Source: a virus (taxonomy: Duplodnaviria; Caudoviricetes). Taken from it: a stretch of 62,409 bases of DNA. The stretch spans positions 1 to 62,409 of the IMG/VR virus record IMGVR_UViG_3300012931_000021. One strand, written 5' to 3'. The notes below the pieces were generated by a model. It was not told where the DNA came from. It saw only the letters and a program-made list of their open reading frames with translations, and ran no database searches. Numbering within the stretch: the stretch's first letter is position 1; each line of letters begins with the position of its first letter. A program made the translations under genes and the position numbers. Shown here piece after piece: positions 9,981 through 28,887 of the stretch.

Positions 9981-10085
9981 CGGTATGAGAAATTCCACAC
10001 ACAATTGGGTGAAATTTTGCAAAAATTTTAAGATGCCCAAACCAATTTGGGTCGCGGACCCGGACCCGCGAGGATTGTGTGTGGA
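9981..10085. repeat. 105-bp structured element, copy 1 (identical to 36006-36110), flanked by GCAGAAATTWGCA repeats
   Basis: Exact direct repeat; 13-mers at 9935, 10131, 10141 and 10173 (reverse). Confidence 0.92.
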
Positions 10086-10247
10086 ATTTTTCAGAACGTT
10101 GTGAAACCCGAATCCAATGCATCTAGAAATGCAGAAATTTGCAGAAATTAGCACCGATTAGTAAAGAATCACTGCTAATTTCTGCTTAAAACCACACAAG
10201 AATAAACGATTAGCAATTAACCGTATAATAATGATGGAGGTGATAAT

Positions 10248-10622
10248 ATGGCACGTATGAAGATTTTTAGCAGTCTCAAGGATACAAAATACACTATGCT
10301 ACAAAAACTATCGAAGCAGTATGAAGTATCTGACTCAGAGATTATAAGGACAGTAATGGAGCGTGTACTTGGAAACAGAAAGTTTGAAAAGTTGTTGATT
10401 CATGATGTTTACAAAGATTTGGTAAACAATGATAAAGAATTAATCTTAGATGATTCATTGAATGAGGATTTACAGGAATCCTGTTACAACATACCTGAAA
10501 AATGTCCTGAATGTGGAGAAAAGGAGGATATAACTGGCAAAAGTGTGATATCTGTTAATCAGGCTACCAAAACATGGAGTTGTTCAAATTGCTTTTCGTC
10601 AGGATTACTCATAAATGTATGA
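10248..10622 (+). CDS. Putative ribbon-helix-helix protein with C-terminal Zn ribbon
   Basis: RHH-like pattern LSKQYEVSDSEIIRTVME; CPECG...WSCSNC. Confidence 0.55.
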   Translation: MARMKIFSSLKDTKYTMLQKLSKQYEVSDSEIIRTVMERVLGNRKFEKLLIHDVYKDLVNNDKELILDDSLNEDLQESCYNIPEKCPECGEKEDITGKSVISVNQATKTWSCSNCFSSGLLINV

Positions 10623-11050
10623 AAACACATGGTATGGTTGGAACAAGATTATATAAAATTTGGGGACATATGAAAGGACGTTGCAATAATCCAAATGATA
10701 GTTGTTATTATAAATATGGAGCTAGAGGTATTAAGGTATGTGAAGAATGGAATTATTTCTTTGAAGAATTCATGGATTGGGCGTTATCACATGGTTATAG
10801 TGATGAATTATCTATAGACCGTAAAGATAATAACGGTAACTACTGTCCAGAAAATTGCAGATGGGCTACTATTGTAGAACAAAACAACAATCAACGTAGA
10901 ACTATATGGGTTGAAATTGATGGTATAATTGACAATATTTATGGCTGGAGCAAAAGAACTGGTATAGCTCCAGGAGTGTTAAGATGGAGATATCACAATA
11001 AAGGATTGCGTGGAACTAATTTAATAAGACCTCTGTATGAGAGGAAGTGA
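10619..11050 (+). CDS. HNH-type homing endonuclease
   Basis: YGARGIKVCEEW...IDRKDNNGNYCPENCRWAT. Confidence 0.85.
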   Translation: MKTHGMVGTRLYKIWGHMKGRCNNPNDSCYYKYGARGIKVCEEWNYFFEEFMDWALSHGYSDELSIDRKDNNGNYCPENCRWATIVEQNNNQRRTIWVEIDGIIDNIYGWSKRTGIAPGVLRWRYHNKGLRGTNLIRPLYERK

Positions 11051-11057
11051 TATATAA

Positions 11058-13907
11058 TTGGGTAAGAAAGCAGTAAAAGACAAATATATGAATTTTTACA
11101 GCCGATTCTACTCCAAATTACATCCAAACACTGATGGCGAATGCCCTGTAAAAGGATTTTGTCATGATGATAAAACTGATAGTATGAGTATAAATCTACT
11201 CACAGGAAAATGGTATTGTCATGCCTGTGAAATAGGTGGTGATACTATTGAGTTTTACATGAAGTATAAGGAGATAGTAGACGGTGAAATCATAGCGTTT
11301 GCTGATGCAAAAGATATAGCAGAAGCTATGGAGCGCGGTGAGGATGTAGATGAGACCATCATAAAGATGGAAGAACGATTTATAGACTCAGATATGATTG
11401 AACAAAAACATAATGTGTTGATGAATGAAGAACCAGGAAAGGAATATCTCAAATTTTTGACTGAAGAGAGGGGCTTCACTCTTGACACTATAAGACGTTT
11501 TAAGCTGACCTGGGATGCAGATAGGATAGGAATACCTATATACGATAAAGATGGCAACATTGTCAATATACGACGTTACAGCAGGACTGAAACCGGAGCG
11601 AAGAAGATGGTTTCATACAAGACAGGATATGGACGCGCACGGCTATTTCCATATTCTAATCTTCAGGTGGATGCTCCAATAATGTTAAATGAAGGTGAAA
11701 TGGACTGTATATTGGCTAATCAAATGGGTTATAATTCCATATCAGTTACTGGTGGTGCTGGTAGCTGGAGTGACTCATTTACAGAGAAGTTTAGAAACAA
11801 GATAGTTTGGATATGTTATGATGTTGACAAAGCTGGAGTTAATGGTGCTATAAGAGTTGCAAATATATTGTATAGTATTGTTAAAGAAATCAAAATAGTG
11901 CGTCTTCCTATTGATGATATAGAGAATGGTGATTTTACAGATTATGTTATGAAGTTAAATCACACAAAGGAAGATATTGATTCTTTGATTGAAAAGACAC
12001 ATATATTTGAACCAATGAACAGAGATAAGCATAAGGATGATGATGTTCACAAACTGTCATTACACGAAGCGGCACAAAGCCAGTATTATAACAAGAAAAT
12101 TGAAATGAACATAACAGTTGCAGGCAAAGATACCGCTCCATATATGATACCAAAAGTGTTTGAAGTTCATTGTCAGTGCAATAACAAGTCCAAATGTAAT
12201 GTGTGTCCTGTAGGTCTTGAACAAGGACGTTTGAAGGTATCAATACCATCTGATGATATAGTTTTGTTGGAGCTTGCTGATAACAATGTAACTAAAATGA
12301 ATATGACATTAACTGAGTATACTGGTATCAGTGATTGTAATAAGTTTGAAATCAATGTAATCGAAAATGTGAATTTGCAGCATGTGTTATTGATACCAGA
12401 ACTTGATTATGCTAGTGAGTATAGTGAATATGTGTCACGTGAAGCTTATGTTGTTGGTCAGGAAGTCAAAGCTAATCAGGGTTATATCATGGTTGGGACA
12501 ACATTACCACATCCAAAAGACCAACGTGTAACACATTTGATTACTGAGGTTGAACCAACTAAGGATAATGTTGAGAAATTCAAAATGTCACCTGAACTGT
12601 TTGAAAATCTGAAGATATTTCAGGCAGTAGATGGCAAGGTTAATAAGAAGGTGGCAGAAATCCAAGCAGACCTGGCAACAAATGTGACACATATATATGG
12701 TAGGAATGATGTGCTTATGGCTGTAGACCTTGTATACCATAGTGTGCTAGCATTCGAATTTCAAGGTAAGATGGAAAAACGTGGATGGGTTGAAGCTCTC
12801 ATAATGGGAGATACCAGAACTGGAAAGTCTGAGACTGTGCAGCGTATTATTGACCACTATCATGCAGGTGACTTCATATCCGGAGAGAATGTAAGTTTTG
12901 CTGGATTAGTTGGTGGAATTAATACAAGTGGTAGACAATTTATGGTAACATGGGGTAAGATTCCTTTAAATGACCGAAAACTTGTGGCTATAGATGAAGT
13001 ATCAGGTATGACAGTTGACCAGATTGGATTAATGTCTGGGGTGAGGTCTTCAGGTGTAGCTGAGTTGGTAAAGATTCAAACAGATAGAACACATGCACGT
13101 ACTAGATTAATATGGATATCAAATGATAGAGAGGGTAAGGGATTAGGATTTTATCCATATGGCACTAATGCTATTGTGGAACTGATAGGAAAGAATGAAG
13201 ATGTTGCACGTTTTGAATTTGTTGTAACATGTGCTGCAGATGAAGTGCCGATTGAACAGATTAACCGTAAACGTGTTGATATAAAACCAGTAAATCATAT
13301 GTATACAGAAGATTTGTGTCACAATTTAGTCATGTGGGCTTGGAGTAGAAAACCAGAGAACATAAAGTGGGATGAAGATGCTATTGATGCAATATTCAAA
13401 CATTCTAAAGAAATGGGTGATAAATATTCAAGTCGTGTACCATTGGTAGAAGCGGCAAACCAACGTATCAAATTGGCAAGAATGTCAATAGCTATAGCAT
13501 GTAGATTGTTTTCAACTGATAACGGTGAAGATGTTATAGTCAGAAAGGAGCATGCTGACTTTGTGTTTAACTATCTCAATAACATATATTCAAAGCCTTC
13601 ATTGGGTTATGCTGAACTATCATCACAGTATAAACATGAAGAAAAGATGGTTGAAGATGCAAAGCCAAAAATAATAAAATCTCTTGATAGCAACAGAGCT
13701 ATGGCAAATATATTGCTTAGTACTCCTGTTATTAATGCAAGATTGTTGGAGGAATTATTGAATATCAGCAGAGAAGATTCCAAAGCCTGGATGAAGTATT
13801 TTCAACAAAATGGTATGACACGAATGTATGCAAATGGAAATAGCCGTATAACACAAGGTTTTTCTAGAATTCTTAGAGAATGGTTACAGAAAGGTGGTAT
13901 AAATTAA
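11058..13907 (+). CDS. DNA primase (Zn finger + TOPRIM) fused to an MCM-like AAA+ helicase
   Basis: CP..FCHDD..S..WYCHAC; EGEMD and YDVD TOPRIM motifs; GDTRTGKS, SFAGLVGG, WGKIPLND..IDE, ARFE. Confidence 0.88.
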   Translation: MGKKAVKDKYMNFYSRFYSKLHPNTDGECPVKGFCHDDKTDSMSINLLTGKWYCHACEIGGDTIEFYMKYKEIVDGEIIAFADAKDIAEAMERGEDVDETIIKMEERFIDSDMIEQKHNVLMNEEPGKEYLKFLTEERGFTLDTIRRFKLTWDADRIGIPIYDKDGNIVNIRRYSRTETGAKKMVSYKTGYGRARLFPYSNLQVDAPIMLNEGEMDCILANQMGYNSISVTGGAGSWSDSFTEKFRNKIVWICYDVDKAGVNGAIRVANILYSIVKEIKIVRLPIDDIENGDFTDYVMKLNHTKEDIDSLIEKTHIFEPMNRDKHKDDDVHKLSLHEAAQSQYYNKKIEMNITVAGKDTAPYMIPKVFEVHCQCNNKSKCNVCPVGLEQGRLKVSIPSDDIVLLELADNNVTKMNMTLTEYTGISDCNKFEINVIENVNLQHVLLIPELDYASEYSEYVSREAYVVGQEVKANQGYIMVGTTLPHPKDQRVTHLITEVEPTKDNVEKFKMSPELFENLKIFQAVDGKVNKKVAEIQADLATNVTHIYGRNDVLMAVDLVYHSVLAFEFQGKMEKRGWVEALIMGDTRTGKSETVQRIIDHYHAGDFISGENVSFAGLVGGINTSGRQFMVTWGKIPLNDRKLVAIDEVSGMTVDQIGLMSGVRSSGVAELVKIQTDRTHARTRLIWISNDREGKGLGFYPYGTNAIVELIGKNEDVARFEFVVTCAADEVPIEQINRKRVDIKPVNHMYTEDLCHNLVMWAWSRKPENIKWDEDAIDAIFKHSKEMGDKYSSRVPLVEAANQRIKLARMSIAIACRLFSTDNGEDVIVRKEHADFVFNYLNNIYSKPSLGYAELSSQYKHEEKMVEDAKPKIIKSLDSNRAMANILLSTPVINARLLEELLNISREDSKAWMKYFQQNGMTRMYANGNSRITQGFSRILREWLQKGGIN

Positions 13908-14704
13908 TGAATGTATGTATCCTTGGAGCAGGTATGTCAGGTATGGTAGTAGCTAAAGCTTTAGATGATATGGATATTGAGTTTGACATCTATGATAAAT
14001 GTGAAACCAACGTTTCACAACAGAAAGGATTACATTATCTTCACGGAGATATCAACCTGCCATTAAAGCCATTTAAACTCAAAAATTTGGTCATTAGACC
14101 AACTGAAATTGATGTAAGGGATAATGTGCTATACAGTATGAAAGTTTGGGGAAACGCCAATATGTTGAATAACAGCCTAGTCGACCTTCCTGAAGAAATA
14201 AATGTGTATGATTTCAGACATGCTTATGAGATTCTGACTGATTATTACAGCGAACGAGTTATAAAGATGGATATTCAGCGTTCTATGTTATCTGGATTAC
14301 AACATGAATATGACCTTATAATTAGTACAATACCATTGTACGTATTGTTTCCAGAATATCAATGTGAATATGAAACAGTATGGGCTTCTGATGTTCTTCC
14401 ACAGGACGTGGAATTAAAGGACTTCATGGTGATGTATAATATTGTATCTGATGTATCATGGTACAGGTGCTCAAAAGTTTTTGGACAGATAAGTGCTGAG
14501 TATGTAAGCAGACATATAGATGCACATCCTATTAAGAAAATCAAAACTTGTGAGAAAGTAGGTATTGATAGTATGCATCTGATGAGAAATGAACATATAT
14601 TATTAGTGGGTCGTTTTAGTGAATGGAACAGAAAAAGATTAGTTCACGAGATATACAGTATAGTCCAGAAAGGAGTGAAATTATGGCAAAAAACCATGGA
14701 ATGA
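13907..14704 (+). CDS. FAD/NAD(P)-dependent oxidoreductase
   Basis: ILGAGMSG Rossmann motif, GLHYLH, C-terminal GRFSEW. Confidence 0.8.
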   Translation: MNVCILGAGMSGMVVAKALDDMDIEFDIYDKCETNVSQQKGLHYLHGDINLPLKPFKLKNLVIRPTEIDVRDNVLYSMKVWGNANMLNNSLVDLPEEINVYDFRHAYEILTDYYSERVIKMDIQRSMLSGLQHEYDLIISTIPLYVLFPEYQCEYETVWASDVLPQDVELKDFMVMYNIVSDVSWYRCSKVFGQISAEYVSRHIDAHPIKKIKTCEKVGIDSMHLMRNEHILLVGRFSEWNRKRLVHEIYSIVQKGVKLWQKTME

Positions 14705-15108
14705 TTGGTACAAGATTGTATTACTCATGGAAAGGCATGAAAGGACGTTGTAACAATTCAAATCATAGTGATTATCATAATTATGGTGAGCGTGGTATCA
14801 AGGTGTGTGAAGAATGGTATGATTTTATTCCTTTCATGGAATGGGCATTTGCAAATGGTTATAGAGAAGATTTAACACTTGATAGAAAGGATAATAACGG
14901 TAACTACTGTCCAGAAAATTGCAGATGGGCTACACAATTGGAACAAGGTAAAAATAAACGTAATAATGTTTGGATAACAATAGAAGAACAGACTCATACA
15001 CTTGAGGAATGGAGCAAAATTTCAGGCATACGAAAGGCTTTAATTGCAAAAAGATATTATAAACAAGGTAAAATAGGAAATAAATTGATTGAAAAGGTGA
15101 TAATATAA
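14683..15108 (+). CDS. HNH-type homing endonuclease
   Basis: YGERGIKVCEEW...DRKDNNGNYCPENCRWAT; paralogous to 10619. Confidence 0.85.
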   Translation: MAKNHGMIGTRLYYSWKGMKGRCNNSNHSDYHNYGERGIKVCEEWYDFIPFMEWAFANGYREDLTLDRKDNNGNYCPENCRWATQLEQGKNKRNNVWITIEEQTHTLEEWSKISGIRKALIAKRYYKQGKIGNKLIEKVII

Positions 15109-15109
15109 T

Positions 15110-16102
15110 ATGAATATTTATAATCCTGAAAAACCAAAAACATTGGAAGAAATGTGGGATGACCAGTATCAGTTTAACAAATTAATATTACCATGTGACC
15201 CAGTTGATATGACACCTGAACAAATACAATACTATCATGAGAAGTACACACTACTGCTTAATAAGGAATTATATGAAGTGCTTGATGAGACTGAATTCAA
15301 GCCGCATAGAGCAATAAAGGGTAAGATGGTTAGAAGTAACATGGCAGAGGAATTGATGGATGTGTTTAAATATTGGATGTGTCTTTGTCAGGTACATGGA
15401 TTCTCTGCTAGTGACATGATTGAGGAATATCACAGAAAATCAAATGTAGTTAAACAAAGATACTTTCAGGAAAAAGTAATGTCGTTTGATGGAAAGATTG
15501 CTGGTATTGATATAGATGGTATTTTGGGTGATTATCCGCGCTCATTCGTTGAATTCATAAATGAACAATTGGGTACATCATTTGATTATCGTAATATAAG
15601 GTCGTATAATATTGGTGAAGCACTTGGGTTATCACCTGAAGAATCAGCCAGGCTTAAACATCTATATCGTGAAACTGGACAGAAGCGGTTTATACAAGTC
15701 ATTGAGGGAGCTAAACAATTCCTGGATGAACTAAAATACATGGGATATATTGTGGTATTGTTAACCTCAAGACCATATAAGAAGTACAAGCGTATATATG
15801 GTGATACCCAATACTGGTTGGCTGAGAATAAACTACATTATGATGCAATCCTGTGGGATGATATGAAGGGTGAGAGACTCATACAAGAATTTGGAAGGGA
15901 TAGAGTCGAATTTTTTGTTGATGATGTTGCAGAATTTGCAAATGGTATAAGTAAATTTGGTATGAAATGTTATCTTATAAACAGGTCATATAATCTCGAA
16001 GTACCAATAGGAGAAAATGTACGTCGTATGATGTCATTAAAAGATATTCTAACGGATATACAAATGCCATATCCATGGGTGAGGAGATGTGAAAATGAGT
16101 AA
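15110..16102 (+). CDS. All-alpha NTP pyrophosphatase (dimeric dUTPase/MazG-like) fused to a HAD 5'(3')-nucleotidase
   Basis: KELYEVLDE..FKPH..EELMDVFKY; DIDG, LTSRP, FVDD. Confidence 0.82.
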   Translation: MNIYNPEKPKTLEEMWDDQYQFNKLILPCDPVDMTPEQIQYYHEKYTLLLNKELYEVLDETEFKPHRAIKGKMVRSNMAEELMDVFKYWMCLCQVHGFSASDMIEEYHRKSNVVKQRYFQEKVMSFDGKIAGIDIDGILGDYPRSFVEFINEQLGTSFDYRNIRSYNIGEALGLSPEESARLKHLYRETGQKRFIQVIEGAKQFLDELKYMGYIVVLLTSRPYKKYKRIYGDTQYWLAENKLHYDAILWDDMKGERLIQEFGRDRVEFFVDDVAEFANGISKFGMKCYLINRSYNLEVPIGENVRRMMSLKDILTDIQMPYPWVRRCENE

Positions 16103-16694
16103 AACACAGATAGTACACAAAGATTGTGGTAATTCCATTACGCTTGATGCATTACTTGCTGAAGTTTGTCCCCACTGCAACGGAGCGGTTACGGTTGAAA
16201 ACACGGGCTGCATTAACCTCACAGACCCATTTGGTGGTAACGAACAGGCATATTATACATCCAAGTTTTCTGAAGCAGCAGAATCAATCGTGGAGCTTGC
16301 TAGAGGAGTTAAGACTTCAGACTATGGTGAGACTTGGAGACGTCTTGGACTGAAGGGAATATATGTTAAGATATTCATAAAAGAAGGACGTTTGAATGAA
16401 CTTATCTGGAATAAGGATTGTAAAGGTATAGCAAGTAAAAATGAAAGCATTAAAGACACGCTACAGGATATCGCAGCTTATGCTATGTATGGTATAATTG
16501 CACTAGAGGAAGATAATGTATTTGGGGATGAAGCTAGTGCAGAGTATCTCAATACAATGGTTAAAGGGTTGCTTGAAACCATACAGAGAGTAAGAAAATT
16601 TGATGACAAAGAAAGGATGATGAAGGTTGCAGAACAAATTAAGGATACTATTGACGAGAGTCAGAAAAGAATCATTGAGCGGAAAGATTGTTGA
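16095..16694 (+). CDS. DUF1599 / nucleotide modification-associated domain 1 protein with N-terminal Zn ribbon
   Basis: K.SDYG..W, K..RL, ESIKDTLQDIAAYA; HxxC..CxxC. Confidence 0.75.
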   Translation: MSKTQIVHKDCGNSITLDALLAEVCPHCNGAVTVENTGCINLTDPFGGNEQAYYTSKFSEAAESIVELARGVKTSDYGETWRRLGLKGIYVKIFIKEGRLNELIWNKDCKGIASKNESIKDTLQDIAAYAMYGIIALEEDNVFGDEASAEYLNTMVKGLLETIQRVRKFDDKERMMKVAEQIKDTIDESQKRIIERKDC

Positions 16695-17316
16695 GTTATT
16701 GGATACTCCTGACAATGAAACGCTTGAAGTTCATGCACTGTCATGCACATGGGATATTAGAAAACTTGGAACATATCCCGAAGACCTTGGAACATATGAT
16801 GCTATAATTAATACTGCTGGCATAACACTCAATGAATCAGTATTGCAGCATAATTTGCGTAATGCAAGACAGGTGTTTGACGTGAATGTTATAGGAGCAA
16901 TGACATTGACATCAGAATATGCCAAGTCTAGGGCTGAGTTGTCTCCTGGGAACGGTGGACTTATTGTTCACATCGGTAGCACAGGCAGCAGGAAGGTATT
17001 TACCAATTGTAGTGCATATTGTGCAAGTAAAGCTGCACTGGCACATTATATTCAGTGTGCCGGATATGAATTGAAATCACAAAACATTGTCGTATTAGGT
17101 GTGCATCCTGGAAACATAAAAGGAACAAATATGACTAAGAAAGTTCAACTTGACCTGCAGGTAAATAGAGGTATGTCGCAGGATAAGATATCTGAAATTT
17201 ATAAAGATGCTCATGACCCATATGATGTAGCGACATTCATTATTAATCTTTTAAACATGCCACTACTTGACATTTCCGGCGAGAATTTCTATCTCGGACA
17301 ATCTTGGAAAGGATGA
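16627..17316 (+). CDS. Short-chain dehydrogenase/reductase (atypical cofactor loop)
   Basis: INTAG, VNVIG, IGS, YCASK, HPG; TTG start uncertain. Confidence 0.85.
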   Translation: MQNKLRILLTRVRKESLSGKIVELLDTPDNETLEVHALSCTWDIRKLGTYPEDLGTYDAIINTAGITLNESVLQHNLRNARQVFDVNVIGAMTLTSEYAKSRAELSPGNGGLIVHIGSTGSRKVFTNCSAYCASKAALAHYIQCAGYELKSQNIVVLGVHPGNIKGTNMTKKVQLDLQVNRGMSQDKISEIYKDAHDPYDVATFIINLLNMPLLDISGENFYLGQSWKG

Positions 17317-17323
17317 TAACAAC

Positions 17324-18340
17324 ATGAAATTTAACATATTTATCAACAATAAACAATGGGAACAGTTTGATGAAGAGACTATGACAATCTTTAAGGAGGC
17401 TGTATTTCAGCACTATAGAGAAGTTGGATTCCCATATTTTAATCTATCATATAATGAACGTGTGGAAGATTTTGTTCGTGTTGGCAACTTCAATACAGCA
17501 GACATGATTGAAGGTGATAATCAGATAAAACAGGTTATGAGTGGACTTGGGTTTGTAAACCATTATATGCCCCATATGTTTGAAGTCCAAAGTGGAAACT
17601 TTATGACGCCATTGGAAGCATTCATGGATGATAATCTGCTAAGAGAAGCTATTGACAAACGCATACAGTATGGTGATTATATGTCAGATAGCGGTATGCG
17701 TAAAGTGCTTGGATTTGTTCATGGTACTCAAAGAGTCAGTAATTTTAGACCTACAGTTGCCAAGTTTATATATGATAAATATCATTCAGAACATGTTCTT
17801 GACTTTTCTGCTGGATTCGGTGGTAGATTGATGGGTGCAGCCGCTTCAAACGTTAAATATTATGTTGGAATTGAACCATGTGTCAAAACGTATAATGCTT
17901 TGGAGATAATGGCTACAGACCTGCTTCAAATAAGTGATATTGAAGGTATATCACTTATTAGCCAACCATTTGAGGATATTGATATAAACGCAATTGATGC
18001 TGGTATGTATGATACAGCATTCTCATCACCACCATATTACAACACAGAGAAATATAGTGATGAAGACACACAATCATGGGTACGATACAAGTCAGTTTCA
18101 GCATGGGAGGAAGGTTTTCTTAAACCTACAATCTTCAGGTGCTGGGAAGCATTATGTAGTGGTGGTCATTTCATAATAAATGTAGCAAATGTACGTACTC
18201 ATTCAATGCTTGAACAAAACACTATGAGATATGCATTAAAGCAGGGTTTTAAGCATATATGCACATATCAAATGCGTTTATCGAAGTTACATGGTGATGG
18301 TTGGAAAACAGAACCAATATTTGTGTTCATGAAGCCTTAA
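17324..18340 (+). CDS. Amino-DNA methyltransferase (SPPY type)
   Basis: VLDFSAGFGGR motif I followed by FSSPPYY motif IV. Confidence 0.85.
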   Translation: MKFNIFINNKQWEQFDEETMTIFKEAVFQHYREVGFPYFNLSYNERVEDFVRVGNFNTADMIEGDNQIKQVMSGLGFVNHYMPHMFEVQSGNFMTPLEAFMDDNLLREAIDKRIQYGDYMSDSGMRKVLGFVHGTQRVSNFRPTVAKFIYDKYHSEHVLDFSAGFGGRLMGAAASNVKYYVGIEPCVKTYNALEIMATDLLQISDIEGISLISQPFEDIDINAIDAGMYDTAFSSPPYYNTEKYSDEDTQSWVRYKSVSAWEEGFLKPTIFRCWEALCSGGHFIINVANVRTHSMLEQNTMRYALKQGFKHICTYQMRLSKLHGDGWKTEPIFVFMKP

Positions 18341-18522
18341 AATCCAAAATAGGAACAAATAGAGGTATTCAAAATAGGGACAGCAAAGTATATGGCGTAA
18401 CAAAAATAGTTGTTAATTCATCAAAATAAAAAGTCGGTTTTACAGTGTGCTTAATGAGTGAATCGTAGGATTCCTTTTAAGGAAAATAAAGGTAAATATA
18501 GGTGAAGAAAGGTGACAAAATT

Positions 18523-19266
18523 ATGATTGAAGACAGAATTGTACTCGTAGTAGGTACAAATGGGTATGACAACATTGGTGCTGCAGTTGTGCAGAAATTT
18601 AAGACTGAAGGTTGGAAAGTTATCACAGCCGATATGAGGAACGACACAGATGTATTCTTGGATGTTACAAACAAGAAGAATATTGCTGGTGTGTTTGACG
18701 CAATTAAGACCATGTATGGCAGACTTGATGCGGTTTTACCGTGCCATGGTATCAATATCTTGGGTAAAATCGAGGAATACAATGAAAAAGATTGGGATAA
18801 GACGATTGATGTAAATCTCAAGGGATTATTCCTCCTGTTGCAGGCATATGTGCAGATTTTCGACAATGATGGTAAGCGTAAGGTGTTTTTGCCTATAACA
18901 AGTGATACCAGCGAAATTCCAAAGACAAGCACATTTGCATATGGTGCAAGCAAAGCAGGAGCGAATCATTTCTTGAGATGCACGGCGCGTGAACTCAACA
19001 AATACCACAAAGACCCATGGTTGGTCACAGGGCTTGCTATTGGCATGGTTGCAGGCACTCCAATGGATAAGAAAACTATATCAGACCTTATGACGCAGCG
19101 CGATATCACTGAAGAGAAAGCGCGTGGAATGCTCACAGCCAACATACCTATCGGGAGAGGGTTATCAACTGATGAGGTTGCAGACTGGGTTTATTTTGTA
19201 ACTGATAAGGGAGACTATGCTACAGGCAACATTATCAGAATAGACGCGGGCCAGCTAAGTGGGTGA
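18523..19266 (+). CDS. Short-chain dehydrogenase/reductase
   Basis: VVGTNGYDNIG, DVT, VNLKG, YGASK, ATGNIIRIDAG. Confidence 0.9.
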   Translation: MIEDRIVLVVGTNGYDNIGAAVVQKFKTEGWKVITADMRNDTDVFLDVTNKKNIAGVFDAIKTMYGRLDAVLPCHGINILGKIEEYNEKDWDKTIDVNLKGLFLLLQAYVQIFDNDGKRKVFLPITSDTSEIPKTSTFAYGASKAGANHFLRCTARELNKYHKDPWLVTGLAIGMVAGTPMDKKTISDLMTQRDITEEKARGMLTANIPIGRGLSTDEVADWVYFVTDKGDYATGNIIRIDAGQLSG

Positions 19267-19270
19267 TATA

Positions 19271-19825
19271 ATGAATCATCATATGTGTAATACGAAACTT
19301 TATAAAACATGGCAGAAAATGAAAGACAGATGTAAACCTGATTATTTTCAGCATTATCTTTATTACGATAAAGGTGTGAGACTTTATAATGAGTGGCAAA
19401 GTTTTATACCATTTATGGAGTGGGCTTTAGCTAATGGATACAAAGATGGACTTACAATTGATAGAAAGGATAATAATAAAGGATATAATCCAGAGAATTG
19501 CAGGTTTGCAACAAAAATTGAACAAGGTAGAAACAGAGATGCATGTGTTTATTTTGAACATAATGAAGAAAAACATTGTTTAACTGAATGGTGTGAAATC
19601 CTTGGAGTAAGCGTTAGTACTGCATTTAAAAGATATCATAAAGGATGGAATTTTGAAGAGATATTTAGCAAACCAAGAAATACTAATAAAGTTAAATTAC
19701 CACTATCTGAATTAGACAATGTTAAAGAGATGAAAAAGACAATGACATTGGTGCAAATTGCTAAAGTATATAATGTGTGTGACCATTCTGTCAGAATGTT
19801 ATTAAATGGTCATAGAAAACATTAG
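19271..19825 (+). CDS. HNH-type homing endonuclease with C-terminal HTH
   Basis: IDRKDNNKGYNPENCRFAT; LVQIAKVYNV. Confidence 0.82.
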   Translation: MNHHMCNTKLYKTWQKMKDRCKPDYFQHYLYYDKGVRLYNEWQSFIPFMEWALANGYKDGLTIDRKDNNKGYNPENCRFATKIEQGRNRDACVYFEHNEEKHCLTEWCEILGVSVSTAFKRYHKGWNFEEIFSKPRNTNKVKLPLSELDNVKEMKKTMTLVQIAKVYNVCDHSVRMLLNGHRKH

Positions 19826-19902
19826 AGTAATAAAGGTATGACGTGAGGAATTGCGCTATACCTTTTTATGTATAATTAACTATCACAAAATTTATAAGGA
19901 GA

Positions 19903-20697
19903 GTGAATCAGATGGGAAAGAAAGTAGAACCAAAAGTAACGTTGGTAGCATGGACGTCTAACCCTATAAAAGCAATTGCTAGTCAGCTTCTAAACATGCA
20001 GGGAGAAATGCATCATAACTTGGATGAGATTGATGAAGACAGAGCAATATCATTGGTCAGAGACCTTAAGAAGACTGCACTTGCTGGTGGTCTTGAAGTT
20101 ATTGATATGGTATTTCAGATTGAAAATGTACCGCGTGCATTGACTCATCAAATGGTGAGAACCAGAATAGGCGCGACATATCATCAGGAATCATTGAGGT
20201 TTACTACCAAGAAAGATGGATTTGATTATGATATTGGACCGACAATATTGAAGAATGAATATTCAAGTATGTTTTTTGAAAATACAATGGAAGGGCTTGC
20301 TGAATCATATAACAGACTCATTGAAAATGGTGCTTCAACCGAAGATGCACGTGGAGTACTTCCTATTGCTACAATGACTAAGATAGGTGTCAAATACAAT
20401 TTTAAGACACTTGTGCATGCAGCAAATGTACGTCTATGCTATCAATCCCAGGGACATTGGAAAACTGTATTCAATCGTATCAAAGAAGAGGTAGAGACCA
20501 AGATACATCCAGTTCTTGGAGAATTCCTTGTTCCGATATGTGAAGTGTCAGGTAGATGTGAATACAAAGGTATCTTTGACCGGAAATGCCCAAAAGAAGA
20601 TGCTATGATTAAGAAAACATGTGCTGCATGCACACACTTTGCAACATGTGATGATACCTGTGCAGCATTGAAAGCTATGCACAGACTGGAGGATTAA
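19903..20697 (+). CDS. thyX: Divergent FAD-dependent thymidylate synthase (ThyX-like)
   Basis: HQMVRTRIGATYHQESLR (RHR replaced by RTR), EDARGVLP, R.C..SQ. Confidence 0.82.
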   Translation: MNQMGKKVEPKVTLVAWTSNPIKAIASQLLNMQGEMHHNLDEIDEDRAISLVRDLKKTALAGGLEVIDMVFQIENVPRALTHQMVRTRIGATYHQESLRFTTKKDGFDYDIGPTILKNEYSSMFFENTMEGLAESYNRLIENGASTEDARGVLPIATMTKIGVKYNFKTLVHAANVRLCYQSQGHWKTVFNRIKEEVETKIHPVLGEFLVPICEVSGRCEYKGIFDRKCPKEDAMIKKTCAACTHFATCDDTCAALKAMHRLED

Positions 20698-20698
20698 C

Positions 20699-23600
20699 AT
20701 GGCTAGTTCACTTCATACACATAGCACATTCAGCCGTCTAGATGGGTATGGATTACCAGAACAGATTGTTAAACGTGCGCTTGAACTTGGGTTGAAGGGA
20801 GTATGCATAACAGACCATGCATCTACAAGTGCTCATCCTAAACTCGAAATGGCATGTGGTAAGTGGGGTAAGTGCAATGTATGTGGTGAGATTGTTGATA
20901 TGAAGAGTGATGTGCATATGTGTGCTGACCCAACATACCAAACAATAAAACCTTTGTACGGGGTTGAACTATATCTCAATTCAGCCAAAACAAAGAAACA
21001 GAAAAAGAATCACATAACCCTTATAGCTAAAAGTCTTGAAGGGTATAGGAATATTGTTAAGATTGCAAGTATGGCATATCAGGATAACTACTTTTATTAC
21101 TTACCATCAGTGGATATTGAAGACGTCTTTGCAAATAGCAGGGACGTCATTGTCCTCTCCGGATGTATGAATGGTATTGCTTCTGAGCTAATTTCGCAGG
21201 GTAAGCTGGATGAAGCTAGGGAAGCAATCCAGCAGATGGCACAGAACATTGAACATTTCTACGTGGAACTGCAACCATTGGATATACGATATGAAAATGG
21301 TGACTATCATGTTGACAGTGAAATCATTAATCGAGAGCTTATCAAAATTGCACAGGGGTTGAGTCTTCAGGTGGTTGCTACAAATGATGTGCATTACATC
21401 AAAGATGATGAACGCTGGTTACAACATTTCCTTGCTATGGTACATAGAAAGACCAATAGAAGAGATTTTCCAAATGCAATGACTACACGTGGAAGACTTG
21501 CAAACGAAGCAGATTTCAAAGAGTGGCTTAAACCATACAGCAAATATATGGCAAAACAGGCACTGATTAATCAGGATAAGATATGTGACTCTGTGGAAGA
21601 TTTTAAACTACCAAAGGCAGCACCTATGAAATGGAATGATGAATCTGATGAAGAGAGATACAAAATACTTGTTGAGAATGTAAATCAGGGATGGAAGAAA
21701 CGCTGGCAGGGTAAGCAATGTCCTGATAGAAAGAGATATCAGGAACAGGGACAATACGAATTGGAATTAATCAGACAGAAGGGATTTTATGACTATTTCT
21801 TGATTGTTTCTGATATGGTAAAATGGGCAAAAGATAATAACATTCTGGTAGGACCTGCACGTGGAAGTGTCGGAGCGTCAGAAGTATCATGGTTAACTGA
21901 CATAACAGAGATAGACCCAATTCGCTTTAATCTTTTGTTTGAACGATTTCTTGACCCATCACGTTCAGATGCTCCTGATATAGACCTTGATTTTCAGGAT
22001 GATAGACGTGATGAAGTTAAGGATTATATGAAACAAAAATGGGGAGAAAATAAAGTATCAAACGTTGCAGGCTATACAATGTATCATGATAAAGGTTTGC
22101 TGGATGATATTGAACGCTGCTATAATTTTCCTCCAAAGACGTCAGATAGATGGAAAAAACGTCTTATTGAAGAAGGTGGTACAGAGTCACTTGAAGAAAT
22201 ATTATCAACAATTGAAGGTATACCTAGAGGAATGGAACGAATGCTGGGACAATTGCGCGGTTATACTGTTCATGCTGCTGGACTTGTTGTATCATCTGAA
22301 CCATTAAGCGACATAACTACTATCATGGGTGACTCGATAGCTTTGGACAAACGAGATGCTGAATACCTCAATTTGTTGAAAATTGACGTTTTAAGCCTAA
22401 CAACATTGCGTGCCATAGCATTAGCATTGAAGGAAATAAAAATGTCTGTAAATCAATTATACGCACTACCATTAGATATACCAGAAGTGTTCAGAGGTTT
22501 TAAAAAGGGAGATATGCAGGGGATATTCCAATACGCAGGTAGTACAACAAGAAATGTGCTAATCAAAGCTTTGAAGCCATACAATATAGATGATTCTGAT
22601 ATGGACGAATTGTTTTCAGTTGTTACAGATGTTAATACATTGTCAAGACCTGCATCATTAAATAATGGGTCAACCAATAGATACACAAATAATATTGTTG
22701 AAAATATACATCCTATAATTACAATGCATACGCAGGAAACACGCGGTCAAATCATTTACCAGGAACAAATAATGAGAGTCTTGCGTGAAGGTGGACTTGA
22801 TTGGGTTGATGTAGCTGCAGTGCGTAAACTGATGACAAAACATGAAGGCAGGGAAAAGTTGGATGGTATCAAGAAGAGATTCTTTATATTCCTCCAAGAA
22901 ACGTTTAAGAATACACCTGAAGAATGTGAAATAGTATGGAGTAGAATTGGTGATGAAGGTGCGTATGGCTTCAATATAGCGCATTGTGTAGCTTATACAT
23001 TGATTGCATACTATACTATGTGGTTGAAGGTGTTCCATCCGCTTGTTTTCTATTGGTCGAACATGATGATAAATGCAGAGGATGAAGGACTTTTAAGAGA
23101 ATTTGCACAATCAGGTGGTAAGATATTTGAAGTACGGTTTGGAAAGTCAAAGTCTGACTGGTCAATTGATTATGAAAGGAATGGAATACGTGCTGGCTAC
23201 ACTACAATTAAAGGTATAGGTGATAAGACAGCAGAGAAACTCATCAGGTTGCAGGAAGAACACACTAATGCTAATGGTGATATAGATATTGATGTTAGTG
23301 ATTTCCCTGCTAAGGCATTCAATGCGCTTACAGAAATTGGAGCATTTAATGAGGATGATTCTATACACGATTATTTGGGTTTAAATGAGCTCTCATCAAT
23401 GGATACCATAGTATCTGGACGCACCAGAATAATTGACCTGTGTGACCATGATATCGTTACATTGGCAGTTAGGTTAAGCAGTCATAAGGTTAAGTCATTG
23501 AAGGAATATTACAAGAAGAACAATAAGGACTACAGTGAAGTAAGGGATGGTGATAAGGAAAGATATGTTAACATGAAAGTTTATGATGAAACTGGTGAAC

Positions 23601-23770
23601 TTGATGTTACTATATCACGATACAAGATGGATGAACCTGGTTATTATGAGCTTGTTGAAGGATTCAATAGTCAGGATGTTTATGAAATGCTAGTGGAATA
23701 TAACGAAGGAAGAAACAAGGCTTATGTCATGAATATGAATAAGGTGGGAGAAGGTGATATTTGCACATGA
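20699..23770 (+). CDS. dnaE: DnaE-like DNA polymerase III alpha subunit
   Basis: PHP motifs LHTHS.FS..DG, TDH, NDVHY; GPARGS, PDIDLDF, HAAG, LLKID, YGFN.AH. Confidence 0.95.
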   Translation: MASSLHTHSTFSRLDGYGLPEQIVKRALELGLKGVCITDHASTSAHPKLEMACGKWGKCNVCGEIVDMKSDVHMCADPTYQTIKPLYGVELYLNSAKTKKQKKNHITLIAKSLEGYRNIVKIASMAYQDNYFYYLPSVDIEDVFANSRDVIVLSGCMNGIASELISQGKLDEAREAIQQMAQNIEHFYVELQPLDIRYENGDYHVDSEIINRELIKIAQGLSLQVVATNDVHYIKDDERWLQHFLAMVHRKTNRRDFPNAMTTRGRLANEADFKEWLKPYSKYMAKQALINQDKICDSVEDFKLPKAAPMKWNDESDEERYKILVENVNQGWKKRWQGKQCPDRKRYQEQGQYELELIRQKGFYDYFLIVSDMVKWAKDNNILVGPARGSVGASEVSWLTDITEIDPIRFNLLFERFLDPSRSDAPDIDLDFQDDRRDEVKDYMKQKWGENKVSNVAGYTMYHDKGLLDDIERCYNFPPKTSDRWKKRLIEEGGTESLEEILSTIEGIPRGMERMLGQLRGYTVHAAGLVVSSEPLSDITTIMGDSIALDKRDAEYLNLLKIDVLSLTTLRAIALALKEIKMSVNQLYALPLDIPEVFRGFKKGDMQGIFQYAGSTTRNVLIKALKPYNIDDSDMDELFSVVTDVNTLSRPASLNNGSTNRYTNNIVENIHPIITMHTQETRGQIIYQEQIMRVLREGGLDWVDVAAVRKLMTKHEGREKLDGIKKRFFIFLQETFKNTPEECEIVWSRIGDEGAYGFNIAHCVAYTLIAYYTMWLKVFHPLVFYWSNMMINAEDEGLLREFAQSGGKIFEVRFGKSKSDWSIDYERNGIRAGYTTIKGIGDKTAEKLIRLQEEHTNANGDIDIDVSDFPAKAFNALTEIGAFNEDDSIHDYLGLNELSSMDTIVSGRTRIIDLCDHDIVTLAVRLSSHKVKSLKEYYKKNNKDYSEVRDGDKERYVNMKVYDETGELDVTISRYKMDEPGYYELVEGFNSQDVYEMLVEYNEGRNKAYVMNMNKVGEGDICT

Positions 23771-24021: not shown

Positions 24022-24202
24022 TTTGAATGCTACAAAGAAACCACCATTAGGTATTATACCAAGAGAAAAATGGCTACTTTTACGTTTTGAAGATTTACAA
24101 AGAGCAATAACAGAATATACACAAGCTGGACTTATTGTTAGAATAGAGTGGATTGATGAATACAATAAATTAGCAAAGGAGTTTGCAGAAAATGATAAAT
24201 GA
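24014..24202 (+). CDS. Hypothetical protein
   Basis: GGAGG RBS; KPPLG..P motif. Confidence 0.6.
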   Translation: MNDLNATKKPPLGIIPREKWLLLRFEDLQRAITEYTQAGLIVRIEWIDEYNKLAKEFAENDK

Positions 24203-26489
24203 AAATGCAAAAAAGATACTCGAAAAGCGGTATATAGCTAAGGATGAGAATGGTGTACCTCTTGAGAATATTGATGGTATGTTTCATCGTGTAGCGCATA
24301 ATATAGCAAAAGCTGAAAGTAAAGATAAAGATAAGTGGGAGCAAATATTTTATGATATGATGGTCAATCTTGAATTTCTTCCAAATTCGCCTACACTTAT
24401 GAACGCTGGACGTCCATTAGGACAACTAAGTGGATGTTTTGTGCTGCCAATTGAAGATAATACAGAGAGTATATTTGATGCAATCAAATACAGCGCATTA
24501 GTTCATAAATCTGGTGGTGGCACTGGTTTTAGTTTCTCAAGGTTGCGTCCCAATGGGAGCATAGTCAAGTCAACTGCTGGAGTTGCTTCAGGACCCGTAT
24601 CATTCCTTAAGGTATTCAATGCTGCTACAGAATGTATTAAACAGGGTGGAACAAGACGTGGAGCTAATATGGGTATTCTGCGTGTTGACCATCCTGATAT
24701 ACGCACTTTTATCAATTGTAAGAAAGATAACAAGGAGGTAACCAATTTCAATCTGTCTGTTGGAGTTACTGAGGAATTCATGAATGCAGCACTTCATAAC
24801 GAAACATATGCACTCATTAATCCTGTTAACAAGAAAATTTCTGGATATGAGAATGCAGCAGAAATTTTCCAAATGATTATTGATGGTTCATGGGAAAATG
24901 GAGAACCAGGCATTATATTCCTTGATAGAGTTAACAAAGACAATCCAACACCTGAACTTGGAGAAATAGAGTCAACAAACCCATGTGGTGAACAACCGCT
25001 TCTACCATATGAATCATGCAATCTTGGGTCAATTAATCTTTCTAATTTTGTTACAAAAGACAAGCAAGTAGATTGTAAAAGACTAGCTATAACTGTACAA
25101 AATGCTGTAAGATTTTTAGATAACGTAGTGACTGTAAATAAATTTCCGCTTCAACAGGTAACAGAAATGACGCTAAAGACAAGAAAAATTGGACTTGGAG
25201 TAATGGGATGGGCTGATATGCTCATACAGATGAATATACCATATAATAGTGATAAAGCAATATCTTTAGCAGAAGAAATAATGGAATTCATAAACGAATA
25301 TGCATTGTGTGCATCTTTAGAACTTGCAAAAGAAAAAGGAGCTTACCCTCAATCTAAAAACCATGATGACTATGAGTTCTCACCACGTAACGCAGCACGC
25401 ACAACTATCGCTCCTACAGGTACATTATCAATTATAGCAGACTGTAGCAGTGGTATAGAACCATTGTTTGCTATTGTATATGAACGTAATCAGGCTGATA
25501 TGCGGATGTTAGATGTAAATCCGGAATTTATAAGGATACTTGGAGAGAAGTACACTGTTGAGCCTACAAAAGAGTTGCTGGAGAAAATCCTAAAATCTGG
25601 CACAATCCAAGGTATGGATGAGATACCAAAGGAAGTCCAGGACGTATTTTTAACAGCACATGATATCGCTCCTGAATGGCATATTAAGATGCAGGCAGCA
25701 TTCCAAAGACATGTCAATAATGCAGTATCAAAGACAATCAACTTCAAGCATGATGCTACCAAAGAAGATGTTAAACGTGCATTCATAATGGCTTATACAA
25801 CTGGATGCAAGGGTGTTACTACTTATCGTGATGGTAGCCGTCAAGAACAGGTATTATCTACTGGAGCAAGTTATCAAAAGGACGCGCCAAGACCACTCAA
25901 AGATGTAGTATTTGATGAGGGTGAAATGCGTCAGGAACAGGCAGAATATCTTGAAGAAATGGCAAGGTTGAGTCTTCAGGTGAAACCGCGTCCACGTCCT
26001 AGACCTGACATAACTACTGGGTTTACAGAGAAAGTCAAGATTGGTTGTGGAAATCTTTATATTACTGTAAACTATGATGAACAGGGCATTTGTGAGGTAT
26101 TTACGAACAATGGTAGAGCTGGAGGATGTCCATCACAGAGTGAGGCAGTGTCCAGGCTTGTTAGTTTGGCTTTAAGGACAGGTATTTCCACTGATGCAAT
26201 AATAGAACAACTGAAGGGAATACGTTGTTCATCAACCATAGGGAAGGGTTTAGAATGCCTTTCATGTCCGGATGCAATTGGAAGACTGATTGAGAAGATG
26301 GAAAAAGAAATAGCTGATACTTACGAATTCAAGCCAAATGACTATCATGGTTATGAAAAATCTGAATACGGAAATGACATTTCATATGCTAAAAATATAA
26401 CATCTACCTGTCCAAATTGCAAGAAAACACTTGAACATGAAGGTGGATGTGTAATATGCAGAAATTGCGGTTTCTCACAGTGTAATTAA
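24192..26489 (+). CDS. nrdJ: Class II (B12-dependent) ribonucleotide reductase with C-terminal TSCPD/Zn-ribbon region
   Basis: PNSPTLMNAG, TNPCGEQPL, IAPTGT, SKTIN, TYRDGSR; no beta-subunit gene. Confidence 0.93.
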   Translation: MINENAKKILEKRYIAKDENGVPLENIDGMFHRVAHNIAKAESKDKDKWEQIFYDMMVNLEFLPNSPTLMNAGRPLGQLSGCFVLPIEDNTESIFDAIKYSALVHKSGGGTGFSFSRLRPNGSIVKSTAGVASGPVSFLKVFNAATECIKQGGTRRGANMGILRVDHPDIRTFINCKKDNKEVTNFNLSVGVTEEFMNAALHNETYALINPVNKKISGYENAAEIFQMIIDGSWENGEPGIIFLDRVNKDNPTPELGEIESTNPCGEQPLLPYESCNLGSINLSNFVTKDKQVDCKRLAITVQNAVRFLDNVVTVNKFPLQQVTEMTLKTRKIGLGVMGWADMLIQMNIPYNSDKAISLAEEIMEFINEYALCASLELAKEKGAYPQSKNHDDYEFSPRNAARTTIAPTGTLSIIADCSSGIEPLFAIVYERNQADMRMLDVNPEFIRILGEKYTVEPTKELLEKILKSGTIQGMDEIPKEVQDVFLTAHDIAPEWHIKMQAAFQRHVNNAVSKTINFKHDATKEDVKRAFIMAYTTGCKGVTTYRDGSRQEQVLSTGASYQKDAPRPLKDVVFDEGEMRQEQAEYLEEMARLSLQVKPRPRPRPDITTGFTEKVKIGCGNLYITVNYDEQGICEVFTNNGRAGGCPSQSEAVSRLVSLALRTGISTDAIIEQLKGIRCSSTIGKGLECLSCPDAIGRLIEKMEKEIADTYEFKPNDYHGYEKSEYGNDISYAKNITSTCPNCKKTLEHEGGCVICRNCGFSQCN

Positions 26490-27758: not shown

Positions 27759-28055
27759 ATGAGCAGAGCATATAGTTTTCAAAAGAATACCAAACCACAA
27801 CCAGTAAAGAAATCTATAATTGAAAAATATAACATGAAATTCACTTACTATGATGATGTTAAGGCATTTTTGGAAGGAAAAGATTCTCATAGTTTAAATA
27901 TTGAATGTGGAAACATACCTGATGCATGCGGCATGTTTCATGAAGCTGTAAAGAAGATATATACTAATTATTACATTAGCGATATATCAGTTAGTCCGAT
28001 AATTAAGGAGGTAAAAAGTGATGAGGAAACTTCGGAGGTCAATCCTGAAAGCTAG
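27759..28055 (+). CDS. Hypothetical protein
   Basis: AGGAG RBS; operonic. Confidence 0.6.
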   Translation: MSRAYSFQKNTKPQPVKKSIIEKYNMKFTYYDDVKAFLEGKDSHSLNIECGNIPDACGMFHEAVKKIYTNYYISDISVSPIIKEVKSDEETSEVNPES

Positions 28056-28218
28056 GATAGGAAACAACAATATATCGGAGTCATGGTTCAATCTACAGAT
28101 GAAGCGTTGCGGAGTTGACCTTAAATGGTTGTCTAAAATTAAAAGCCATTGGCATACGATACGTCATACTGGGATGCAGATTGCAAAGTTTTGTAAGGCA
28201 AAGCTTCAAAGGGCATAA
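28018..28218 (+). CDS. Hypothetical basic protein
   Basis: GGAGG RBS; ends at terminator. Confidence 0.6.
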   Translation: MMRKLRRSILKARIGNNNISESWFNLQMKRCGVDLKWLSKIKSHWHTIRHTGMQIAKFCKAKLQRA

Positions 28219-28256
28219 AAAAGCACCATTGTTCATATGAGCAGTGGTGCTTTTTT
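28217..28256. terminator. Bidirectional intrinsic terminator
   Basis: A6-GCACCATTG/CAGTGGTGC-T6 between convergent genes. Confidence 0.9.
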
Positions 28257-28263
28257 ATGCCCT

Positions 28264-28524
28264 TTAGCTAGCTTGTCTTCCTACCCATTCAACAAAGTTG
28301 TTGAGCTCCTTTTCTACACGTTCTGCACAGGCATTCATATCGAGATGTCCAAGCTCTATGGCTTCACGGAACATTACGAATGTGGTGACTACAACACCAC
28401 GCTTGTTATAATACTCATGAACACTTCTACCGTTGCCATTATACTCGTATATAGCCTTTGAACGTTCGTATAGGTGCAGTAGGTTGCTATACTTCCTGAT
28501 AGCGTCTTGTTTAGTCTTAATCAT
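28264..28524 (-). CDS. Hypothetical early protein
   Basis: GAAAGGAG RBS before ATG (MIKTKQ). Confidence 0.7.
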   Translation of the reverse strand: MIKTKQDAIRKYSNLLHLYERSKAIYEYNGNGRSVHEYYNKRGVVVTTFVMFREAIELGHLDMNACAERVEKELNNFVEWVGRQAS

Positions 28525-28573
28525 ACAATCATCTCCTTTCATGGATGAAACGCCATCAATGTGGCGTTTCATG

Positions 28574-28696
28574 TCAAGCACTTTTCAGTTTTGCTCCCAA
28601 TGCCGATTTACTATTTCTTGTAAGTATCTTCCTTAAATTACATTCAATCATCAGTTCTTTAACAATCTTATCGATTTCGCTTTGGTCAAGATTCAT
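28574..28696 (-). CDS. 40-aa hypothetical protein (not in ORF track)
   Basis: AAGGAG RBS; MNLDQSEIDKIVKELM... Confidence 0.55.
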   Translation of the reverse strand: MNLDQSEIDKIVKELMIECNLRKILTRNSKSALGAKLKSA

Positions 28697-28872: not shown

Positions 28873-28887
28873 GTTAAATCATTCCTT

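Follow-up and report, generated by a model that had tools for sequence, protein, structure and literature searches.

The viral contig IMGVR_UViG_3300012931_000021 from IMG/VR (Caudoviricetes), analyzed here over all of its 62,409 nucleotides (the window), carries nine + strand genes between its primase-helicase (11058–13907) and its DnaE-type polymerase (20699–23770), grouped around an atypical homolog of ThyX, the flavin-dependent thymidylate synthase (FDTS). In this protein the active-site histidines have been replaced and four cysteines have been added (Cys4). Our results support the interpretation that it forms, with a flavoprotein (FADox), a nucleotidase fusion (MazG-NT5C), a DUF1599 protein and short-chain dehydrogenases/reductases (SDRs), a functional block that is conserved, specific to phages and adjacent to a dedicated DnaE. 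The reading that we favor, with a probability of about 0.45, is that this block supplies thymidylate as a variant module in which the delivery of electrons or one-carbon units is altered. No description of this histidine-less, cysteine-bearing ThyX clade, the FADox family or the module turned up in the literature searched, which offered only genome announcements with annotations.

The ThyX-like protein (19903–20697, + strand, likely start at 19912) belongs to the ThyX fold. It scored 111.2 bits on the Pfam family Thy1 (PF02511; cut-off 24.8, E = 7e-32), and the top Foldseek matches of its AlphaFold2 (AF2) model, which had a predicted local distance difference test score (pLDDT) of 92, were all ThyX or its paralog PolB (E of 1e-12 to 1e-13 and TM scores of 0.6–0.78 against ThyX). 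The protein was aligned to the ThyX enzymes of Corynebacterium glutamicum and Thermotoga maritima, with the numbering anchored by H53A and Y91F mutant chains. In this alignment, T. maritima His53 is replaced by Leu60, His59 by Val66, His79 by Thr87, Tyr91 by Phe100 and His178 by Gln181. Residues Glu58 (E65), Gln75 (Q83), Arg78 (R86), Arg80 (R88), Ser88 (S97), Arg90 (R99), Arg147 (R150) and Arg174 (R177) are kept. Instead of the signature RHR(x)7-8S the protein reads RTR...S97, with both arginines and the Ser/Arg pair retained, and EDAR150 corresponds to E-x-A-R147 of T. maritima. The motif reading of the first-pass annotation (RTR for RHR, loss of the upstream histidines, conservation of the serine and of EDAR) was therefore borne out by both reference alignments.

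The pattern of loss and conservation is shared by the relatives of this protein. Among 51 aligned family members, the equivalents of the dUMP-binding residues (Q83, R86, R88, S97, R99, R150 and R177) are invariant or present in 50, and the enzyme presumably still binds a (deoxy)uridylate-type nucleotide. The position of His53, which we take to be the folate-stacking histidine, is occupied by Leu in 48 members and Ile in three; T. maritima His53 mutant structures with folate appear among the Foldseek matches. The middle residue of R-x-R is T in 31 members, H in nine, Q in six, N in three, and Y and G in one each. The His59 position is variable, His79 has become mainly Thr or Gln, and His178 has become Gln or Arg. 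These replacements support the view, at the level of aligned residues, that the pocket for folate or NADPH in canonical ThyX has been remodeled across the whole clade. The four clade cysteines are nearly universal, with Cys179, Cys219 and Cys229 each found in 50 of the 51 members and Cys213 in 48; one of them lies two residues after the nucleotide-binding Arg177. They probably hold a metal, as zinc or an iron-sulfur cluster. In the close subclade that includes this phage, they are followed by an extra CxxC...C...C tail.

This clade is large and almost confined to phages. A word-indexed search recovered 79 relatives, and a pattern scan of IMG/VR identified at least 519 viral stretches with the clade pattern; the pattern scan over 185,579 species genomes (one per species) returned 11 loci, mostly on contigs of metagenome-assembled genomes, of which seven are canonical ThyX. 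All four cysteines occur in 81 of 82 viral loci, the remaining locus running off its contig end, and Leu or Ile replaces His53 in 81 of the 82. An informative intermediate is L075, a 193-kb IMG/VR contig of a jumbo phage, whose ThyX (locus positions 10001–10615; 266 bits on Thy1) has the canonical histidines together with all four cysteines. It was basal to the clade in a FastTree phylogeny, with the root assumed to lie on canonical ThyX. Because L075 combines the cysteines with the canonical histidines, the cysteines are compatible with canonical chemistry.

The near-obligate partner of the Cys4 ThyX is FADox (13907–14704, + strand, 265 aa; phrog_8720, E = 1e-24), a member of a phage-only family of no assigned function that is, on the evidence of its predicted structure, a flavoprotein. 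The AF2 model (pLDDT 94.5) has an N-terminal GxGxxG motif and the two-domain fold of the UGM/GR2 type. Its best structural matches were UDP-galactopyranose mutases (UGM; Z scores of 15.1, 13.8 and 13.4), the top one with a root-mean-square deviation of 4.0 over 259 residues, and Foldseek agreed. The mutases are longer (360–470 aa) and have a helical substrate domain that is missing from FADox, which was modeled as flavin and beta-sheet domains; the Pfam family GLF (UDP-galactopyranose mutase) did not match FADox. A C-terminal GR..W stretch is presumably akin to the flavin motif of UGM. Protoporphyrinogen oxidase, group A monooxygenases and D-amino-acid oxidase (DAAO) followed at Z scores of 12–13.4, and because other GR2-fold flavoenzymes lie within 2 Z units, the match denotes a flavoprotein fold, not mutase activity.

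Sequence comparisons of FADox were less specific. The sole Pfam match was a weak one to NAD_binding_8 (E = 0.0014, below the cut-off), and the family profile matched just the 30-residue dinucleotide-binding motif in the PDB. The family comprises 742 cluster representatives at E ≤ 1e-30, and the atlas clusters that contain it are 95–98% viral. No fusions were found among the best 150 of 2310 matches, all of which were 243–343 aa long with a single matched stretch. A thioredoxin-reductase-like role was rejected for lack of a conserved redox cysteine pair, and an MnmC/DAAO-like role because DAAO-type matches were no better than those of many other flavoenzymes. Complex prediction for the ThyX-like protein and FADox gave a score of 0.00, which counts neither for nor against their pairing.

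The gene-neighborhood survey that the first-pass annotation had proposed as a check showed that the block recurs. The seven closest loci contain the primase-helicase, FADox, MazG-NT5C, DUF1599 and one or more SDRs, then the ThyX-like gene and DnaE; SDR1 and DUF1599 are swapped in L004 and L007, and in L008, which carries a single SDR, DUF1599 was not detected and DnaE lies ahead of the ThyX-like gene. Homing-endonuclease genes of the HNH type come and go among these loci. Across the wider set, in which counts were based on family profiles, FADox was found in 64 of the 82 ThyX-anchored loci. When at least 8 kb was available on both sides (32 loci), FADox and DnaE were each present in 31, an SDR in 14 and NT5C in at least 18, a lower bound as NT5C was sought here with a single sequence. 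Anchoring on FADox, for which a narrower stretch of its alignment was used, gave 80 loci; the 51 with at least 9 kb downstream included DnaE in all 51, the ThyX-like gene in 46, NT5C in 44 and an SDR in 25. About half of the modules therefore lack an SDR. The linkage between FADox and Cys4 ThyX holds among loci whose ThyX proteins are as little as about 30% identical, with hosts ranging from low-GC to actinobacterial. The arrangement is not a chance one, since its gene order is found again in dozens of divergent viral contigs. Genes for AAA_24, PD-(D/E)XK, SNF2 and primase-helicase proteins are equally conserved around the block.

The module also occurs in cultured phages. FADox homologs were detected in 98 cultured-phage records, all from actinophages, and tblastn returned equal numbers of records for FADox and the ThyX-like protein (Microbacterium 36, Mycobacterium 32, Streptomyces 9), a comparison of counts, not record by record. 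The ThyX-like proteins of PB1, XcP1, SirHarley and Dryad are all members of the clade. In Mycobacterium phage SirHarley the order is oxidoreductase, deoxyribonucleotidase, methyltransferase (Methyltransf_11), hypothetical gene, FabG-like gene, Pol III alpha, hypothetical gene and ThyX-like gene; in Streptomyces phage Dryad it is oxidoreductase, phosphatase, hypothetical genes, DnaE, further genes and ThyX-like gene. Homologous FADox, NT5C, SDR, DnaE and Cys4 ThyX thus stand in the same order in the actinophage block, which differs from the block studied here in its high-GC hosts, its one SDR, the lack of the MazG half, a ThyX-like protein of about 367 aa and, in SirHarley, the small Methyltransf_11 gene. 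XcP1 has ThyX, a HAD_PNKP phosphatase protein, a FabG-like SDR, an exonuclease and a polymerase, and PB1 has the same set minus the SDR.

The phosphatase genes adjoining Cys4 ThyX in these two phages, PB1 gp59 (L086, 8111–9151) and XcP1 gp48 (L087, 7771–8838), are annotated as 'polynucleotide kinase/phosphorylase'. Pfam matched their N-terminal HAD_PNKP phosphatase domain alone, and because the C-terminal half of about 200 aa matches no Pfam family, the kinase annotation is unverified.

Within the window, the second member of the block after FADox is a fusion (15110–16102, + strand; Pfam NT5C 1.2e-7, MazG 9e-5) of an all-alpha NTP pyrophosphatase of the MazG/dUTPase_2 type (residues ~5–150) with a HAD 5'-deoxyribonucleotidase (NT5C, residues ~130–295). 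More distant modules have the NT5C half alone, and the MazG half was seen nowhere outside the close clade L002–L008. The DUF1599 protein (16089–16694, + strand; Pfam 7e-10) has an N-terminal Cys-rich segment; Pfam names the domain 'Nucleotide modification associated domain 1', and the Nmad domains were reportedly named in a 2013 paper. A divergent DUF1599 homolog of about 150 aa (hhalign 97.2%, E = 3.7e-11) is present in 42 of 52 loci with both FADox and the ThyX-like gene, which makes DUF1599 near-core to the module. Sequence searches of the PDB with the MazG-NT5C fusion, the DUF1599 protein and the methylase-like protein described below returned nothing useful.

The two FabG-like SDRs, SDR1 (16627–17316, + strand; adh_short 5e-23) and SDR2 (18502–19266, + strand; adh_short 2e-26, adh_short_C2 1.5e-27), both keep the Ser-Tyr-Lys triad. 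The glycine-rich cofactor loop of SDR1 is degenerate (TRVRKESLSG), matching the TGxxxGxG feature in part, and that of SDR2, a complete SDR, is the variant GTNGYDNIG. In the alignment, both have diagnostic residues in common with the one SDR that distant modules and SirHarley carry, and by this comparison they are paralogs, a local duplication of that module SDR. N-terminal truncation of SDR1 was considered and rejected, the alignment showing its first strand present and the glycine loop alone degenerate. The apparent TTG start of SDR1 lies inside the end of the DUF1599 gene, in a different frame (68-nt overlap, 16627–16694); this early start was assigned because the conserved first SDR strand requires it.

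Between the SDR genes lies a gene (17324–18340, + strand) with 39% identity to a Vibrio phage gene annotated as 'N-4 cytosine-specific DNA methylase'. It has no Pfam match, and the motifs FxGxG and SPPY can be read in its translation. It was absent from all 82 related loci, including two relatives with ThyX about 70% identical, and we take it to be a DNA amino-methylase of the N4C/N6A type, inserted here and outside the conserved module. All of the genes that the first-pass annotation had named were recovered on the + strand between primase and polymerase by open reading frame (ORF), Pfam, PHROGs and fold analyses, and the joint block of pyrophosphatase/nucleotidase, DUF1599 and dedicated DnaE was upheld. 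That annotation had also counted the methyltransferase into the pathway and treated the pair of SDRs as a distinctive variant, and neither point survived the comparison of loci. Its gene list omitted two HNH homing-endonuclease genes (14623–15108, phrog_3377, E = 3e-53; 19259–19825, phrog_3377, E = 5e-47; both + strand), which are mobile insertions outside the pathway.

From the folds, residues and linkages above we would infer the substrate, product, metal and electron route, as well as what FADox, the SDRs, NT5C and DUF1599 do, and interpret the block as one form of a phage-specific deoxypyrimidine module that is widespread and accompanies phage DnaE. The phage's dTMP would most likely still be made by its ThyX-fold enzyme, by methylation of dUMP. 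The enzyme may draw its reducing equivalents, and perhaps its one-carbon unit, via the Cys4 metal site and FADox in place of direct NADPH oxidation. The FabG-like SDRs would serve as auxiliary enzymes that use NAD(P)H, and the dNTP/dNMP pool would be adjusted by MazG-NT5C and DUF1599. The DNA methylase and both HNH genes are unrelated insertions. The gene inventory of the related genomes is consistent with this interpretation. ThyA (PF00303) was found neither in this genome nor in any of 41 related genomes (20 at least 90% complete, 4 cultured), and 40 of the 41 had a single Thy1 match. Plain thymidylate synthesis fits this pattern, and dTMP is a likely product because no other thymidylate-synthase-family gene was found. 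A genome-wide search for dNMP kinases, made with the thymidylate kinase family PF02223 only, gave no match in this genome or in four other records checked, and among the 41 relatives it matched only L075, where the match contains one in-frame TAG. With no such kinase, the product must be accepted by host kinases, as dTMP is. A phage ribonucleotide reductase commonly accompanies thymidylate synthase, and for this reason the phage's own reductase (large chain with TSCPD domain by Pfam, 24183–26489, + strand, probably class II) was counted in favor of dTMP. Neither dCMP deaminase nor dihydrofolate reductase was found in this genome.

Several observations weigh against such a thymidylate module. 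The ThyX-like protein scored 79.4 bits on the equivalog model TIGR02170 (NCBIfam), below its cut-off of 87.9. Asp148, two residues before the Arg147 equivalent and Val in T. maritima, is invariant in all 51 members and could bear on base specificity. The loss of histidines at the folate/NADPH face would be explained equally well by a changed one-carbon donor or by a changed product. The 5'-deoxyribonucleotidase, present in 44 of 51 modules, is awkward for dTMP supply and fits the depletion of a canonical nucleotide. FADox is absent from PB1 and XcP1, and since phages of these types have Cys4 ThyX without it, FADox cannot be an obligatory electron donor. Finally, the literature searched contained no biochemical data for any member of the clade.

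Some of these points would also be accommodated by pre-replicative base modification, a less likely alternative, in which the Cys4 ThyX-like enzyme puts a non-methyl group on C5 of dUMP or dCMP (for example a hydroxymethyl, by water trapping of the exocyclic methylene). FADox and the SDRs would then oxidize or reduce the group, MazG-NT5C would destroy the competing canonical dNTP or dNMP, and DnaE would incorporate the new nucleotide. Such a role would be consistent with a remodeled folate/NADPH face beside an intact nucleotide pocket, with the new and invariant Asp148, with an NTP pyrophosphatase fused to a deoxyribonucleotidase that would convert dNTP through to nucleoside, with a 'nucleotide modification associated' protein in most modules, and with the tight linkage to redox enzymes of unassigned role and to a dedicated polymerase. 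Some versions moreover include a small-molecule-type S-adenosylmethionine methyltransferase (Methyltransf_11; 10 loci and SirHarley). However, the PF02223 kinase is lacking here and in all but one relative, an SDR is missing from about half of the modules, and PB1-type phages pair the same ThyX class with a HAD phosphatase alone. Pfam and PHROGs scans of 49 ORFs (short ORFs left out) identified no kinase, glycosyltransferase or aminotransferase, and no 5-hydroxymethyldeoxyuridine (5-hmdU) DNA kinase or aGPT-Pplase turned up in them, although no model dedicated to the latter two was used; glycosyltransferase, 5-hmdU DNA kinase, aGPT-Pplase-like and aminotransferase genes were likewise absent from the recurrent annotated module genes of 160 loci. 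The literature searched gave no report of unusual bases for the cultured carriers, a weak argument as perhaps nobody has looked. A more speculative elaboration, to which we give still less credence, is that Cys4 ThyX and the UGM-like flavoprotein form a new two-component flavin/metal-cluster system that installs a non-methyl C5 group before replication, with the SDR and Methyltransf_11 as interchangeable tailoring enzymes, and that these phages carry an undescribed DNA base. Nothing in the analysis shows either the non-folate donor or the non-methyl C5 product that had been proposed for this locus in the first-pass annotation.

The product could also remain dTMP with the accessory genes serving the cofactor, if MazG-HAD, the SDRs and FADox processed a pterin or flavin used by the ThyX-like enzyme; a host pterin triphosphate might, for example, be dephosphorylated and reduced, then act as one-carbon carrier or reductant. 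Pyrophosphatase, phosphatase and SDR reductases are the enzyme logic of pterin tailoring in the folate and biopterin pathways, and both the gene set of the block and the near-complete replacement of His53 across the viral loci would agree with such a supply. We nonetheless consider it improbable: the phosphatase belongs to the deoxyribonucleotidase family NT5C, the MazG half is confined to the close clade, the SDR profile best matched generic FabG-type reductases in the PDB, with no pterin reductase among the 60 matches listed, and neither GTP cyclohydrolase nor another pterin gene was seen. Very improbable, in our assessment, is the absence of any joint pathway, that is, independent nucleotide-housekeeping or auxiliary genes clustered as phage replication and nucleotide genes do. 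The equal conservation of the surrounding replication genes and the variable content of the modules, about half of which have an SDR and few of which have the MazG half, would be expected of such a cluster, but FADox and Cys4 ThyX stay together in 31 of 32 ThyX-anchored and 46 of 51 FADox-anchored loci with good coverage, across diverse identities and hosts, and both families hardly occur outside viruses.

ThyX has been studied extensively as a drug target and serves as a model of flavin-relay methylation. The canonical enzymes (T. maritima TM0449, Mycobacterium tuberculosis, C. glutamicum) share the fold and the nucleotide-binding residues of the phage protein; the present clade differs from them in its replaced histidines, its four added cysteines and C-terminal extension, its invariant Asp148 and its almost exclusive occurrence in phages. 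Base replacement in phages T4 (hydroxymethylcytosine) and SPO1/phi-e (hydroxymethyluracil) combines a dNTPase or dNMPase with a ThyA-family homolog, a phage polymerase and a phage dNMP kinase. With MazG-NT5C as the candidate dNTPase or dNMPase, the block would follow the same logic, but with a ThyX-family enzyme and no PF02223 kinase. According to Lee et al. (NAR 2021/2022, PMC8989533), thymidine hypermodification in phages M6, ViI and PaMx11 begins with a ThyA-family dUMP hydroxymethylase, followed by 5-hmdU DNA kinase and aGPT-Pplase transferases acting on DNA, and PaMx11 gp47 is an FAD-dependent enzyme of its pathway. These pathways resemble the present block in occurring in phages, in acting at pyrimidine C5 (putatively, in the block) and in having an FAD-dependent enzyme; the ThyA-family enzyme with which they start was not found in this genome or its 41 relatives. 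PolB (PDB 4p5a/4p5b), one of the top fold matches, illustrates recruitment of the ThyX fold outside bulk dTMP supply: it is a ThyX paralog that methylates UMP/dUMP in polyoxin biosynthesis (PMC5954106). Unlike the phage protein it is encoded in a Streptomyces antibiotic gene cluster, and the excerpted text of that source mentions no Cys4 site or flavoprotein partner for PolB.

What the clade would reveal is either a new product or a new electron or carbon feed to ThyX chemistry. Were dTMP the product, the module would define a two-component form of thymidylate synthesis; if it is a new base, a ThyX-based route would join the known ThyA-based phage DNA modification, with a bearing on restriction evasion and sequencing artifacts. 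These possibilities are directly testable, as phages that carry the module can readily be grown on Mycobacterium smegmatis, Streptomyces, Gordonia and Microbacterium.

The borders of the module are formed by replication genes. Upstream, the primase-helicase (+ strand) consists by Pfam of a CHC2 zinc finger, Toprim and an MCM-like P-loop domain, and in related loci it also precedes FADox; downstream, the DnaE-type DNA polymerase III alpha (+ strand) has PHP, NTPase, finger and HhH domains by Pfam. The contig has a GC content of about 37% and nearly all of its genes on the + strand, and its completeness was estimated at 74% by CheckV despite direct terminal repeats. No tRNA genes were detected, and the contig has no close relative in a set of 50,697 cultured-phage records, where a megablast search with the block gave no match.

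The replication region is interspersed with at least four HNH homing-endonuclease genes that are paralogs of a single type (10574–11050, 14623–15108, 19259–19825 and 36304–36615); three matched phrog_3377, and the first (10574–11050) was judged by eye from its translation. Relatives L002 and L003 have copies at other positions, so these genes are actively mobile. The stretch from 28000 to 30000 is the sole one with reversed GC and AT skew, and it holds a few minus-strand ORFs (28264–28581 and 29166–29618), which had no family match. The phage also encodes a sigma-70-like factor of its own (2341–2895), and an ORF at 32555–33169 combines DUF4326 with a YAcAr/SLOG domain (Pfam 1.6e-25 and 4.3e-15), a fold of the nucleotide-processing type.

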